64,000 nucleotides of DNA from Chloroflexota bacterium. Its GTDB lineage: Bacteria > Chloroflexota > UBA11872 > VXOZ01. The notes under the pieces were generated by a model that was not told the origin of the DNA, did no database searches, and worked only from the letters and a program-made list of their open reading frames with translations. Made by a program: the position numbers and the translations under genes. Positions 27,783-53,956 of this stretch are shown piece after piece. The stretch's first letter is position 1. Each line of letters starts with the position of its first letter. The stretch spans positions 96,001 through 160,000 of the forward strand of contig OZ219801.1 of assembly GCA_964291655.2 (NCBI GenBank). Direction: 5' to 3'.

Positions 27783-28928
27783 GTGATAAGCGAGGATCCT
27801 AGACTAACCGGAGCCGACGTAGACCCGCTGCGGCAGCAACTCTTTGAGGCGTATGACAACTGGCTCATGCTCCAATGCCGCGTGCGCTATAACGCCCGCG
27901 GCGAAAACTGGCAGCGGGACTACTCAAATCAGGATGCGTATCTGAAGTCAATTGAACCAAATCGCGAGCGCCTGCTCGCCATGATCGGCGGCTGGCCGTG
28001 GGAGCGCGGCCCGTTGGAGCCGCGCATCGAGGAAATCGCCGCTACTGACACCTACACGGCTTCCCGCGTCTGGTATACGTCATTCGACGACGTGCGCGTG
28101 GACGCTATTCTCATTCGCCCTCACGGCCCGGGGCCGTTTCCGGCGGTGCTCGCCCAGCACGGCGTCAATCACACGCCGGAGCAGATTTGCGGGTTTTGCG
28201 ACCCAGAGCACAGCGCCGCGTACCACGAGATCGGCGTGCGCCTCGTCAAGCATGGCTATGTCGTCATCGCGCCGCGCATGATTGGCGGTTACGGCGAAGA
28301 CCGCTTCAACGTGCCCAACATTCCCTCCCTACGTCAGCAGGAGCAGGGCCGCGCCCAGAACCAGATTCACCGCAAGGCAATTCTCATCGGCCAGAGCATA
28401 CAGGCGTTGGAGTATTTTACGCTTTCCCGCGCCGTCGACTACCTGGAATCGTTGCCGGAAGTGGCCAACGACCGCATCGGCCTCTACGGCCTTTCGCGCG
28501 GCGGCCGTGCCGCCCTCTGGCTGGGGGCTCTGGAGCAACGCTTGCAGGCGGTGGTCTCATCGGCCTGGTTCAACGAGCGCTTCAGCAAGATGCTGCAGCC
28601 GGAGATAATCAAAGTCGGTTCCTTCATTGAGACTTCATCCGAATTTCAATTCATCCCAGGTCTTTTTCATGAGTTTGGCGATGCCGACATAGCCTCTCTC
28701 ATCTGCCCGCGCGCCTTCTTCGTGGAGGACGGCAAGCACGACCGCGCCGTGTGGTGGCCGAAAGCAATCCAAGAGTTTGAGTTGGTTGAAGCCAATTACG
28801 AAAACCTTGGCATTCCTGAAAAGTGCGGCATTCGCATTCACGAACAAGGTCATGAGACGGAACCGGAAGCGGAGATCACGGATATCCAAGCCGTGGCGTT
28901 TCTCGACCGCTGGCTGAAGGCTGTGTGA
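27783..28928 (+). CDS. Alpha/beta hydrolase (dienelactone hydrolase/esterase-like)
   Basis: PFPAVLAQHG, RAVDYL, GLSRGG nucleophile elbow, GKHD, QGH. Confidence 0.85.
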   Translation: MISEDPRLTGADVDPLRQQLFEAYDNWLMLQCRVRYNARGENWQRDYSNQDAYLKSIEPNRERLLAMIGGWPWERGPLEPRIEEIAATDTYTASRVWYTSFDDVRVDAILIRPHGPGPFPAVLAQHGVNHTPEQICGFCDPEHSAAYHEIGVRLVKHGYVVIAPRMIGGYGEDRFNVPNIPSLRQQEQGRAQNQIHRKAILIGQSIQALEYFTLSRAVDYLESLPEVANDRIGLYGLSRGGRAALWLGALEQRLQAVVSSAWFNERFSKMLQPEIIKVGSFIETSSEFQFIPGLFHEFGDADIASLICPRAFFVEDGKHDRAVWWPKAIQEFELVEANYENLGIPEKCGIRIHEQGHETEPEAEITDIQAVAFLDRWLKAV

Positions 28929-29006
28929 GGAGTTTCCGCCTTGCGCGCCGCACTGAAATGCAATCGAAAGCAATGTCCTTTCAATCTTGAATTGACAGCA
29001 GTGCTG

Positions 29007-29033
29007 CCGTTCGCCCTGAGCTTGTCGAAGGGC
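29007..29033 (+). repeat. CCGTTCG..CTGAGCTTGTCGAAG repeat (left of the HMA gene)
   Basis: Matches 2582-2607; inverted partner at 29597-29622. Confidence 0.75.
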
Positions 29034-29148
29034 ATTCCGACAATTTTGTGCCTTGGAAGTGGCGTCTTTAGTAATGCTGCGTAGCCACTTCACCACAAAC
29101 GGTATCCCGGTAGGCCCTGTAGTCGCCTAGACTTGAGGATGAGTCACG

Positions 29149-29514
29149 ATGCCAAGACTCTTAAATTTCTTCATCGATCCCTACGTCGTGCTCCGACGGG
29201 ATGAAACCACGGGCGACGACTCCGGTAGCGCAGGTTTGCAGCCTGCGCTAACACGCGAGCTTGAAGTCCATGTCGCCGGTCTCGCCTGCACGAGCATATG
29301 AGCGCGGCGTACACAGGAGGGCCTTGCGTCACTCCCGGGCGTCCAAGAGACTAGTTTCAACCCTAAAACCGATACCTTTTCTGTCCGCTATCACGGGGAC
29401 GAGCTAGATCTCGCTAGTGTCAACGCAGCGGTGCGCGGGAAGGTGGTCGCCAAGCCGGTGCGCAGGCTGCTTGCTTGGATCAGTCGCCCGTTTCGCCACG
29501 CCCCGAAAGCATGA
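29149..29514 (+). CDS. Heavy-metal-associated (HMA) domain protein with in-frame TGA, probable selenoprotein (C47-x3-U51)
   Basis: Manual translation MPRLLNFFIDPYVV...LEVHVAGLACTSI*ARRTQEGLASLPGVQETSFNPKTDTFSVRY...; HMA pattern continues through TGA 29299-29301; hairpin follows; GAGG upstream of the ATG. Confidence 0.75.
29224..29248 (+). repeat. GTAG-type REP (family A) inside the HMA coding frame
   Basis: GGTAGCGCAGGTTTGCAGCCTGCGC, read as GSAGLQPA. Confidence 0.75.
29302..29334 (+). promoter_or_regulatory. Putative bacterial SECIS element
   Basis: GGCGT/GCGTC lower stem, AGG/CCT upper stem, AGGG loop beginning 16 nt after the TGA (folded by eye). Confidence 0.5.
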
Positions 29515-29596
29515 ACCCAGTGGGCGCGCCGGACTCCAACCACCTAGTTGAAGACCGGAATAAGAGGGTGGAAGGGAACTCCCGCTCTGCCGTCCA

Positions 29597-29622
29597 CACT
29601 TCAACAAGCTCAGTGCGAACGG
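29597..29622 (-). repeat. CCGTTCG..CTGAGCTTGT(C/T)GAAG repeat (right of the HMA gene)
   Basis: Reverse complement matches 29007-29032 at 23 of 26 positions. Confidence 0.75.
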
Positions 29623-29712
29623 CAGAGCTTACCGCGAACTACTTGTGCTTGGCGATGCGAATTTTCTTCGACACGCCTCAACTCAACGCATGCAACTTTG
29701 CATCGCTCTCGC

Positions 29713-29741
29713 TTGTATCTCCTCCCAAGAGCGTCTAAAGT
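29713..29741 (+). promoter_or_regulatory. Putative sigma70 promoter
   Basis: TTGTAT-17 nt-TAAAGT upstream of the MetE-like gene. Confidence 0.45.
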
Positions 29742-29829
29742 GAGGCTAATGTTTGCGTAGTCACTCAAGACCTAGCGCACACTTGACGCGAACTCCCTTT
29801 GACCGTTAGTGCCAAGAGGACGTACATTC

Positions 29830-51197: not shown

Positions 51198-51496
51198 GTT
51201 CTACCGGCAATGCAGGTAATTCCGATTGGAAGTGAGGAGTCTAGAGCCGCTCAGGTACTGACACTCGCACTTGTACTTAAGCATGGCACGAACATCAACG
51301 GATAGCGAGCGACAATAGTTCGGAAGTGTCGCCTCTCCGCGCAATCGCACAATCAATCTTCAAGTCAAGACAGATTCTCGCTTGCGTAGGACTGACGGCG
51401 AACAGTTGTTTGGTGCCGTTGTCTCGGTCCCCTTAAGCGATGTGTGCGAACAATTGGAGAGTCCGACATTTTCATGTGGAGAAAGGCGAGAGCAAT

Positions 51497-52474
51497 ATGG
51501 CTGAAATGATGTGGCGAGTCGCCAAGCATGAGGGTTTAGGCAACATTGTCATGGAGCATGTGCCCATACCCGACCTCGGGCCCCATGAAGTGCTCGTGCG
51601 CGTTCACGCCAGCTTGATTAGCCGCGGATCGGAACTTTGGCGACGCTACGTCATGCCCGGCCCGGTCGACCCTGGCTCAATGGGGTATTCCACGGCAGGC
51701 ACAATCGTGCAAGTTGGCAGCGACGTAACCGGATACGCGCCCGGCGACCGCGTCGCATGCACGGCGCCCCACGCTGAATTTGCGATAGGTGACGTGAGTT
51801 CCACCGCGCGCAAACGTGTGACGCCGTTGCCCGACGACCTTCCCTTCGAGAGCGGCACCTTCCAACCTCTATCGACCAGCGCATTTGGCTGGACCGCGAC
51901 CGCGGGAATTTTGCCGCAACATACCGTAATTGTCCTCGGCCTTGGGTTGGTGGGAAACCTGGTGATGCAGGCCGCCACCCGCTTTCTGCCCGCGCACCTT
52001 TGCGGAATTGACATGCTGCCTTTACGGCTTCAGCTAGCAGAGCAATTGGACATTGGCGAGATCATTGACGGAACTGCTCACGATCCGGTGCGAGCCGTCC
52101 TGGAACGGACTAAGGGCAATGGAGCCGACATCGTTATCGATTGCGTAGGCGGGCGCGCAGGATTAGAGTCGTTTCGGCAAGCGCAAGACATGCTCGTCGC
52201 AGGCGGTCTGCTGCAACTCATTGGCCTCTACCACGACGATCCCTTGCCGCTCGATGCGGGGAAAATACAGCGCAAGCGGCTTATTGGCGGGTACCTGCCG
52301 GACACGGATGTGGAGGCCATGGCCCATGCGGCGGTGCGGTCGTTAGCCAGCGGCCTCATTCAATCCACGCCGCTGATTACCCACCGCTTCCCCGGCAATC
52401 AAGCAAAAGAAGCCTTTGACCTACTCTATGAACGACCTGATGACGCCATGGGCGTAATTCTGGAGTGGACGTAA
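51497..52474 (+). CDS. Medium-chain (zinc-type) alcohol dehydrogenase family
   Basis: EVLVRV, PGDRV, GLGLVG, GADIVIDCVG, LITHRF; canonical GHE replaced by GYS. Confidence 0.85.
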   Translation: MAEMMWRVAKHEGLGNIVMEHVPIPDLGPHEVLVRVHASLISRGSELWRRYVMPGPVDPGSMGYSTAGTIVQVGSDVTGYAPGDRVACTAPHAEFAIGDVSSTARKRVTPLPDDLPFESGTFQPLSTSAFGWTATAGILPQHTVIVLGLGLVGNLVMQAATRFLPAHLCGIDMLPLRLQLAEQLDIGEIIDGTAHDPVRAVLERTKGNGADIVIDCVGGRAGLESFRQAQDMLVAGGLLQLIGLYHDDPLPLDAGKIQRKRLIGGYLPDTDVEAMAHAAVRSLASGLIQSTPLITHRFPGNQAKEAFDLLYERPDDAMGVILEWT

Positions 52475-52503
52475 CGGCAAGTAAGTCCCGCCGCCTCCGC
52501 TCT

Positions 52504-52670
52504 GGCAGCGCTGGTTTGCTACCTGCGTCCACACGAACGTACCCGCAGTGTGGCTCTGCGTCCCTCCCCATTCCGGTAGCGCAGGTTTGCAACCTGCGTC
52601 CACACGAATGTACCCGCAGTGTGGCTCTGCGTCCCTGCCCATTCCGGTAGCGCAGGTTTGCAACCTGCGC
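52504..52670 (+). repeat. Tandem array of GTAG REP family A, period 71 bp
   Basis: REP starts at 52504, 52575 and 52646; linkers nearly identical. Confidence 0.85.
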
Positions 52671-52765: not shown

Positions 52766-53956
52766 TCACTCCCCCGCCAACGCACCCACCCCAGGCATGG
52801 CTGCCTCAATACGCTCCGCCGCCGCCATGAGATTTTCCAGCGAGTTGGCAAAAGAGAATCTCACGTAGCCTTCGCCGGCGGCGCCAAATCCCGTCCCGGA
52901 GAGCGAGGCTACCCCTGCTTCCTCCAGCCAATACCGTTCCAAACGCGCGGACCCCACGCCAAGCTCCTTCACGTTGCAGAAGGCGTAGAACGCCCCTTGC
53001 GGCACTAAACATGAGAGGCCGTCTATGGCATTGAGCGCGCCGATGAAGGCATCGCGTCGGCGGCGAAACTCCGCCACCATAGCATCTACCGAATATTGTG
53101 GGCCCTCAAGTGCCTCGATGCCTGCCATCTGGGTAAAGCTCGCCGTGCATGACGTGGCGTTATTCAAGATCAGTCCGATCTTCTCTGCCAGAGGGACCGG
53201 CATCACGCCGTACCCCAGGCGCCAGCCCGTCATGGCATAGGTCTTCGAATGGCCGTCCAGTAGAATAGTCTGCTCCTGCATTCCAGGGTGTGCCAAAATG
53301 GAAGCGTGGCTGCCATCGTAGACTATGCGGCTGTAGATTTCATCGCTCAGCACCCAAATCGGCTTGCCCCGTACCATGTCGGCGATTTCCCCGAGCTCCT
53401 CCGCCGTGAACACGCCGCCGGTGGGGTTGTGGGGTGCGTTCAAGATAATGAGCCGCGTCTTGTCAGTAATGCTGTCGCGCAATTCATCCAGGTCCCAGCG
53501 GAACTGCCGCTCCTCGTAGAGGGTCAGCGGCACCCTGGCGGCACCGGCAAAGCGCAGCATTGAATCATAGGTGGGAAATCCCGGATCAGGGTAGATCGCC
53601 TCATCTCCAGGATTGACCGTGGCCAAGATTCCGGCAAAGACGATTGGCTTCGCTCCCGGCGTTACCACCACGTTCTCGGCTGAGGCATCGACACCCCACC
53701 CTTGCTGCACGTATCGCGCTATGGCCTCACGACAAGGCATGAGACCGGGAGTAGGGCCATAATGCGTATGTCCGTCCTGTAATGCCTGAACGCCGGCCTC
53801 CACGATGTTTTCCGGTGTGGGAAAGTCCGGCTCGCCGATCTCCAAGTGGATGATGTCTTTCCCGGCACTTTCCAGTTTACGGGCGCGCGCAAGAACCGCG
53901 AACGCCGATTCGCCTTTCAATAGGTCGGTACGAGCGGCTATGTTCGGGACAGCCAT
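52766..53956 (-). CDS. PLP-dependent aminotransferase class I/II (aspartate aminotransferase-like)
   Basis: IGEPDF, NAPHNPTG, SDEIY, SKTYAMTGWRLG. Confidence 0.93.
   Translation of the reverse strand: MAVPNIAARTDLLKGESAFAVLARARKLESAGKDIIHLEIGEPDFPTPENIVEAGVQALQDGHTHYGPTPGLMPCREAIARYVQQGWGVDASAENVVVTPGAKPIVFAGILATVNPGDEAIYPDPGFPTYDSMLRFAGAARVPLTLYEERQFRWDLDELRDSITDKTRLIILNAPHNPTGGVFTAEELGEIADMVRGKPIWVLSDEIYSRIVYDGSHASILAHPGMQEQTILLDGHSKTYAMTGWRLGYGVMPVPLAEKIGLILNNATSCTASFTQMAGIEALEGPQYSVDAMVAEFRRRRDAFIGALNAIDGLSCLVPQGAFYAFCNVKELGVGSARLERYWLEEAGVASLSGTGFGAAGEGYVRFSFANSLENLMAAAERIEAAMPGVGALAGE

Follow-up and report, generated by a model that had tools for sequence, protein, structure and literature searches.

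Within the window, by which we mean the whole 64,000-nucleotide stretch of Chloroflexota DNA analyzed here, positions 29149-29514 of the forward strand are almost certainly a real, intact gene, and the one internal TGA that interrupts its 121 codons (29299-29301, codon 51) is very probably a site at which selenocysteine (Sec) is inserted. We propose that the gene would be translated as a single 121-residue cytoplasmic selenoprotein, with UGA51 decoded as Sec by the genome's own SelA, SelB, SelD, and tRNA-Sec; that an mRNA stem-loop lying ~15 to 36 nt after the UGA would direct the insertion; and that the second TGA, 70 codons on, would be the true stop. Cys47 and Sec51 should fall where the beta1-alpha1 loop passes into alpha1, the site of the C-x-x-C motif in CopZ, Atx1, and MerP, while an N-terminal strand and an Arg-rich C-terminal helix probably mediate partner or surface contact. 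Taken as a whole, this explanation of the locus, an intact selenoprotein gene with a SECIS-directed Sec51 and an HMA-like core that carries a soft-metal site, is one that we consider likely.

The sequence-only reading that drew attention to the locus had described a 121-codon frame, broken by one TGA and missed by the ORF track, and that description is exact. The frame opens with ATG at 29149 and closes with TGA at 29512-29514, and the ORF track misses it because the ORF list holds only the 50-codon stub 29149-29301 at this start. The start site is common to all 26 orthologues discussed below, which begin with the same Met/Val-Pro. The gene stands alone, 220 nt downstream of an alpha/beta-hydrolase gene that ends at 28928 and 294 nt upstream of a MetE-like gene (Meth_synt_2) that begins at 29809. 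Simple scans detected neither a terminator-like site nor, upstream of the gene, a promoter-like site, and an Rfam scan of 28900-29800 at E <= 10 matched nothing. Public gene calls split such genes in two, listing N-terminal stubs whose last residues are ...C-T-S-I and 70-residue proteins whose start immediately follows the TGA. The protein is taken as cytoplasmic because, by inspection, it has no hydrophobic N-terminal segment. The coordinates of all features are collected in Table 1.

Table 1. Features of the putative selenoprotein gene and its surroundings, in window coordinates
Feature	Position	Strand	Description	Basis
Shine-Dalgarno-like GAGGA	29135..29139	+	9 nt 5' of ATG	Read from sequence
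Selenoprotein gene (proposed)	29149..29514	+	121 codons plus TGA stop	Frame, HMA match, orthologues, dN/dS
N-terminal beta strand (predicted), residues 12-21	29182..29211	+	P11 directly before	Model pLDDT 91 (residues 11-20)
In-frame REP-like palindromic element	29217..29248	+	S-G-S-A-G-L-Q-P-A; loop between N-terminal strand and beta1	
HMA-like core, residues 40-97	29266..29439	+	beta1, alpha1, beta2, beta3, first half of alpha2	PF00403, PDB profile, overlays
Cys47 codon TGC	29287..29289	+	First residue of C-x3-U	Invariant in 26 orthologues and 46-row family alignment
UGA probably read as selenocysteine, residue 51	29299..29301	+		TGA-versus-TGC column and Sec machinery
SECIS-like stem-loop region	29306..29343	+		RNAalifold consensus, synonymous-site constraint
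Lower stem	29306-29310 with 29339-29343	+	5 bp	RNAalifold consensus
Upper stem	29317-29322 with 29328-29334	+	6 bp, one bulged A	RNAalifold consensus
Hairpin loop CUUGC	29323-29327	+		RNAalifold consensus
C-terminal alpha2 extension (predicted), residues 100-116	29446..29496	+	Basic, amphipathic, invariant Arg105	Model helix 88-116

A six-frame search of 61 genomes of the same class recovered full-length orthologues from the window's own genome, from all 16 of its congeners, and from all nine species of a second family, which we call f5. The remaining 35 of the 61 genomes yielded nothing or weak matches, with E values of 5e-6 or weaker, and these weak matches lie mostly inside 800- to 1,100-codon frames of the P-type-ATPase kind. 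When codons were extracted from the tblastn alignments, the column of residue 51 proved to be TGA in 10 of the genus's 17 species (counting the window's own genome) and in all nine f5 species; it is TGC (Cys) in the remaining seven congeners, and the alternative residue in this column is always Cys. As a codon pattern, this alternation of TGA and TGC is the classical Sec/Cys signature. Nor is the TGA unique to one assembly: besides recurring in nine other congeneric species and in every f5 species, it is unchanged in contigs from the runs of two other studies (X5 record 18; X7 records 23 and 24), which show zero differences at 29299-29301 and differ from the window at many other positions. The X1 and X2 contigs match the window letter for letter, and the window may derive from them.

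We compared selection on the two sides of the TGA by the method of Nei and Gojobori, leaving out rows with indels and so using nine of the 10 TGA forms of the genus and six of the nine from f5. For the genus, dN/dS is 0.19 over the 62 codons after the TGA and 0.20 before it (36 pairs); for f5, the corresponding values are 0.17 and 0.165 (15 pairs). By this estimate the reading frame past the UGA is shown to be under purifying selection. A gene tree of the 26 orthologues leaves 14 of its 23 inner branches open, and its best topology has two Sec/Cys changes, of which the well-supported branches force only one. The gene is too short for such a tree to order the Sec/Cys switches.

A search of the genome (two contigs, 3.47 Mb, 59% G+C) found all of selA, selB, selD, and tRNA-Sec. 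The profile scores of selA (464.9 bits) and selD (383.3 bits) lie above the curated cut-offs, selB scores 356.8 bits against a cut-off of 242.25, and aragorn detected one tRNA-SeC with the anticodon tca. The selD gene (G000:C2:2457313-2458242) is likewise interrupted in frame by a TGA, at the canonical S-C-A-G-(TGA)-A-G-K site, with two hairpins after it; selD is a selenoprotein gene too. It is the sole internal selenoprotein control, since the only match in a genome scan for the CMD family (PF02627), intended as a second one, has no stop. TGA also serves as an ordinary stop in this genome, where it ends 315 of the 1,048 stop-free frames of at least 400 codons. The Sec machinery, the conservation of the TGA, and the Cys column together support what had been read from the letters of the window, namely, that this TGA stands for selenocysteine.

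In both lineages, RNAalifold places a hairpin that begins 15 to 16 nt after the UGA. The upper stem of the genus (29317-29334) has 6 bp that are invariant among the TGA forms, and the lower stem has one covarying pair (CG in five, UG in three, and UA in two). The f5 consensus, which begins 15 nt past the UGA, is a 9-bp stem with the loop GGC; pairing persists at all three of its variable positions through C or U opposite G. All 19 TGA forms, and 1 of the 7 Cys forms, have an intact stem: each of the 10 TGA forms in the genus keeps six of the six upper-stem pairs, whereas the Cys forms keep six in one case, five in two, four in one, three in one, and two in the last two. The one Cys form with an intact stem (L025) looks like the bearer of a fossil SECIS. 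We also compared third codon positions by their mean pairwise identity, a measure taken over relatives that are not independent: in the TGA forms of the genus it is 0.86 in the hairpin region versus 0.61 upstream and 0.53 downstream, in the Cys forms of the genus 0.53 versus 0.62 and 0.47, and in the TGA forms of f5 1.0 versus 0.81 on either side. Judged by these comparisons, the hairpin region is shown to be under RNA-level constraint in the UGA forms only.

The case for the hairpin is comparative, not thermodynamic, since the window's own fold has a z value of +1.21 and 181 of 200 shuffled sequences fold at least as well. The sequence-only reading had drawn a hairpin from GGCGU/GCGUC plus AGG/CCU. 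Such a hairpin does exist, with 77 of 80 cells (96.3%) paired across the 10 TGA orthologues of the genus, but its exact pairing is one of three that are indistinguishable. The consensus and a third alternative, mutually exclusive pairings of the same stretch, have 98.2% and 94.3% of their cells paired, so that, to judge from the counts, all three fit about equally; we favor the consensus fold because it coincides in position with the clear hairpin of f5. The covariation that had been suggested as a check on the hairpin is present at the one lower-stem pair, but at the consensus stem it is not significant in the genus, the observed score being reached by 119 of 500 shuffles.

The assignment of the product to the HMA fold holds: with C placed at the TGA position, the protein scores 29.7 bits against the Pfam HMA profile PF00403 (cut-off 24.8), residues 40-97 aligning with profile positions 2-58 of 62, and in a six-frame scan of the genome with PF00403 the gene scores 24.8 bits and is listed over the cut-off. 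The two halves around the TGA jointly form one HMA domain. The motif reads G-L-A-C-T-S-I-U, with the TGA four residues after Cys47, and so indeed at the site of the second Cys with three spacer residues (C-T-S-I-U); the M/L-x-C-x-x-C motif of HMA domains does not describe it. To align canonical HMA domains with it, a gap of one residue has to be opened between their two Cys, both in tblastn rows (L045, L046, and L048) and in alignments to the PDB. There, a profile search found 44 sequences at E <= 0.001, all of them HMA domains, and every alignment shown has this gap; the matches to the core include domains of CopA, ATP7B, and CopZ.

Positions that are invariant across the 26 orthologues include M1, P2, P11, H41, V42, G44, L45, C47, I50, U/C51, R54, T55, and R105. 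A profile search of 1.84 billion representatives returned 461 proteins at E <= 0.001, 39 of them at E <= 1e-10; many of the 461 are multi-HMA ATPases, and dozens are proteins of 100 to 120 residues that align from residue 1 to ~115. In a 46-row alignment of this wider family, P11, G44, C47, C51, and R105 are invariant, and the spacing is C-x3-C/U in 39 rows and C-x2-C in seven. The atypical C-x3-U spacing that had been noticed in the window is accordingly a family trait (39 of 46 rows), and the N- and C-terminal extensions beyond the HMA domain are real and conserved, both among the 26 orthologues and in the 46 rows. Homologues without the TGA have Cys at exactly that position, in seven congeners and throughout the 46 rows. 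By alignment, the probable Sec protein is a member of a wider family of ~100- to 120-residue proteins with an invariant Cys pair in an HMA core.

None of the sources that we checked has a name for this family, and nine of the 10 proteins that we looked up sit in nameless clusters. The tenth is labeled tRNA-guanine transglycosylase, which is unrelated and which we take to be an annotation slip. The NCBIfam models of CopZ (NF033794, NF033795, and NF047957) score 21, 18.2, and 17.8 bits, far below their cut-offs of 95, 91, and 85, and we rejected an identity as the copper chaperone CopZ. We likewise rejected NF041115, the UxxU metal-binding (seleno)protein, which scores 16.3 bits against a cut-off of 95 and whose motif is U-x-x-U, not C-x3-U. 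In a protein atlas, a natural Cys homologue (P0005) fell only among HMA-labeled clusters, at 0.81 to 0.88, below the 0.9 line, and a metagenome contig scan with alignment A1 gave one 15-residue match only.

An AlphaFold2 model built on the 46 rows (mean pLDDT 82, pTM 0.67) predicts strands at residues 12-21 and 35-43, a helix at 49-60, strands at 65-71 and 76-82, and a long helix at 88-116; a model on the 26 rows has the same topology with a pLDDT of 68. The predicted order is thus beta1-alpha1-beta2-beta3-alpha2 plus an N-terminal strand, with no strand after alpha2, and the Pfam match ends at position 58 of 62. The model suggests an HMA core to which an N-terminal strand has been added and whose alpha2 is prolonged into an Arg-rich tail, and these two elements would set the family apart from the classical metallochaperones. 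Solved HMA domains overlay model residues 31-99 over 60 to 68 residues, with an rmsd of 1.6 to 2.4 A and Z values of 6.5 to 6.8; every overlay Z value is less than 8, below the level that the comparison tool calls distinctive. A Foldseek search of the PDB with both models gave no match at E <= 0.001. The homodimer prediction for two copies of a natural Cys form scored 0.02 (mark 0.42), which weighs neither way.

All 19 loci found in a collection of species-representative genomes are labeled as Chloroflexota metagenome-assembled genomes. In a 401-genome sample of the phylum, in which f5 is absent from the tallies and from among the matches listed, full-length matches occur only in the genus (11 of 11, the window's own genome included) and in G378, whose homologue is of the C-x-x-C form; the others of the 90 genomes with a match owe it to HMA domains, mostly in 800- to 1,000-codon frames. 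The neighborhood is fixed in the genus and comprises genes for a thiolase, an SDR, an isochorismatase, a solute-binding protein, the alpha/beta hydrolase, the proposed selenoprotein, the MetE-like protein, and two GFO/IDH/MocA oxidoreductases, the neighbors being 58 to 94% identical versus 47 to 78% for the selenoprotein gene. The f5 copies are flanked by an epimerase/DUF1731 gene on each side, and the flanking genes in G378 encode a CoA-ligase-type protein and a xylose-isomerase-like TIM-barrel protein. No neighbor is common to the genus, f5, and G378, and there are no metal-related neighbors in these three; the context therefore gives no function. In the small genomes (1.7 to 1.9 Mb) of another family of the phylum, we observed two HMA-type frames of 76 to 80 codons with one in-frame TGA each (G180:C1:1186718-1186930 [L093] and G124:C1:195011-195214), and these short frames may be a different HMA selenoprotein.

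The six-frame scan of the genome found three HMA matches, two of them in one CopA-type ATPase and the third in the gene at 29149-29514; no canonical free-standing CopZ was found. The ATPase (TIGR01511, 606 bits; G000:C2:1136849-1139326 [L099:2350-4827]) is the only P1B ATPase of the genome, and the gene at 29149-29514 does not adjoin it. The first HMA domain of the ATPase reads G-M-T-C-A-A-C, and the second has lost both Cys.

Two alternatives deny that Sec is inserted at all. Were the TGA a true stop, the locus would be a pseudogene or two small genes, one for a 50-residue stub and the other a downstream ORF of 70 residues, much as the public gene calls do divide it. Against this stand the retention of the TGA across the genus and f5 (19 forms), with Cys in the same column in seven others, the equality of dN/dS on its two sides, and the single HMA domain that both halves make together; moreover, the codon after the TGA in the window is GCG, which leaves the downstream part without a start of its own. 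We regard a true stop as highly improbable. The same small weight goes to a UGA that is read through without Sec, whether by near-cognate insertion of Trp or Cys or under a reassigned code. The inserted residue, it is true, cannot be told from sequence alone, but TGA is a common stop here (315 of 1,048 long frames) and closes the present gene as well, Cys is the only alternative residue among the orthologues, the hairpin tracks the TGA state, and the genome has a complete Sec system whose selD itself carries a TGA.

What the Cys47/Sec51 pair does is a question on which we are much less certain. We tentatively favor a thiolate/selenolate pair that binds a soft metal ion, at somewhat less than even confidence, with Cu(I) as the first candidate, given that the genome has no other free-standing HMA-type protein and that its sole P1B ATPase is of the CopA type. 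The C-x3-C/U spacing is unlike that of every solved HMA domain aligned, so the geometry of the metal may differ, or the site may bind none. The same selenoprotein might instead use the pair as a redox couple, forming a selenenylsulfide, and act as a small thiol/selenol oxidoreductase or as a sulfur or selenium relay. Most prokaryotic selenoproteins are thought to be redox proteins, according to a 2022 review and the available part of a 2026 review; the spacing of the pair is not the C-x-x-C of HMA domains, and the genus, f5, and G378 offer no metal-related neighbors. However, the only family matched is HMA, whose characterized members bind metals, the pair is placed where HMA domains hold their metal, and we found neither a thioredoxin-like fold nor a partner reductase nearby. 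A redox couple is the main alternative to metal binding, though an unlikely one. A further and rather speculative reading, which we also think improbable, is that the protein is a rearranged HMA-derived module, with the N-terminal strand replacing beta4, an Arg-rich helix, and an obligatory C-x3-C/U, and that it works as a Cys/Sec sensor or relay and not as a classical metallochaperone. If so, one possibility is that it donates Cu(I), in a selenium-dependent manner, to the single CopA of genomes without CopZ; another is a factor that responds to metal or redox state and uses its basic helix for docking. On this reading, the history of Sec would comprise a single gain in Chloroflexota and one or more subsequent losses within the genus.

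The proposed selenoprotein resembles the HMA metallochaperones and P1B domains (CopZ, Atx1, CopA/ATP7, and MerP; PF00403) in its beta1-alpha1-beta2-beta3-alpha2 core, which aligns by sequence and in the model, and in the position of its Cys/Sec pair at the loop and first helix turn, where HMA proteins bind Cu(I), Hg(II), or Zn(II). It differs from them in the extra residue between the ligands (C-x3-U instead of C-x-x-C), in the Gly-Leu that replaces Gly-Met-Thr before the first Cys, and in a predicted model that lacks beta4 after alpha2 and has a conserved N-terminal strand, a 29-residue alpha2, and an Arg-rich tail. With the HMA-related Sec families, a cation-transporting ATPase and NF041115, it would share selenocysteine within an HMA-type metal-binding motif; in those families, however, Sec comes first, in U-x-x-C/U, whereas here it would come second, in C-x3-U, within a free-standing protein that has N- and C-terminal elements of its own. 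Copper proteins of the Sco/SenC type use C-x3-C to bind copper, but they have a thioredoxin fold and are membrane anchored, and the analogy extends to the C-x3 spacing only. The longest structural overlays, of 87 to 93 residues (Z 6.6 to 6.9, rmsd 3.2 to 3.9 A), are with RNA polymerase L/Rpb11 and the alpha N-terminal domain, which have in common with the model an N-terminal strand, a sheet, and a long C-terminal helix. The identity is 5 to 18%, however, with no relation at the sequence level, and Z values of less than 8 may reflect a shared arrangement only.

Among the 87 families of prokaryotic selenoproteins listed in 2022, the only HMA-related ones are the cation-transporting ATPase (UxxC) and a putative mercuric reductase (UxxU). 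Table 1 of the 2026 review holds 119 families and subfamilies; in the portion of that review that is available, the HMA-related entries found are the same two, the second now as NF041115, together with a further metal-binding entry, MbdU, and the terms PF00403, HMA, COG2608, MerP, and CxxxU do not occur in its text. A C-x3-U HMA-like family is not among the nine new families of deep-Sep as far as its accessible text describes them, and HMA, CopZ, and UxxU do not occur in the accessible text of the Haft 2022 preprint. Full-text literature searches for selenocysteine with an HMA domain or with CopZ, and for Chloroflexota with SECIS, returned nothing relevant. The family is in neither the 2022 catalogue, the available part of the 2026 one, nor NCBIfam, and BSepDB (111 families) or Haft and Tolstoy 2025 could list it. 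In light of the catalogues checked, it is very probably an uncatalogued variant of Sec in an HMA-type site.

Annotation routinely cuts selenoprotein genes in two, and the public calls at these loci are 50-residue stubs and 70-residue tails. As proposed here, the new family joins the few selenoproteins in which Sec occupies a metal-binding-type site and not a thioredoxin-like redox site. The occurrence of natural Sec and Cys versions within one genus makes for a ready comparison of what selenium contributes. The gene also defines an unnamed HMA-derived family, marked by additional conserved elements and an unusual C-x3-C spacing. The host bacteria are Chloroflexota that are uncultured and represented by metagenome-assembled genomes only, so the finding mainly improves annotation and provides a testable protein, and it settles no open question.

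The gene also tolerates a REP-like element in frame within a conserved sequence. The element has ~28 nt, with a 9-bp stem and a 3-nt loop, and 121 copies with at most three mismatches to a 24-nt core occur in the genome; at the copy in the gene there is a depth spike, with short repeat contigs. It is present in genus orthologues, with three copies in L034, and L036 of f5 has none. In the same loop of the protein, two Cys forms of the genus (L035 [G011], 1273-1797, and P0012) have a low-complexity insert of 40 to 55 residues rich in Asp, Ser, His, and Gly. Further copies of the element lie in the window at about 15375, 39810, 52504, 52575, and 52646. Between the convergent ORFs 51440-52474 (+) and 52766-53956 (-), the stretch from 52500 to 52670 consists of three 71-nt units in an intergenic tandem array, and each unit contains the same REP-like element; similar regular arrays occur elsewhere in the genome with spacings of ~78, 99, 109, 116 to 120, and 221 nt.
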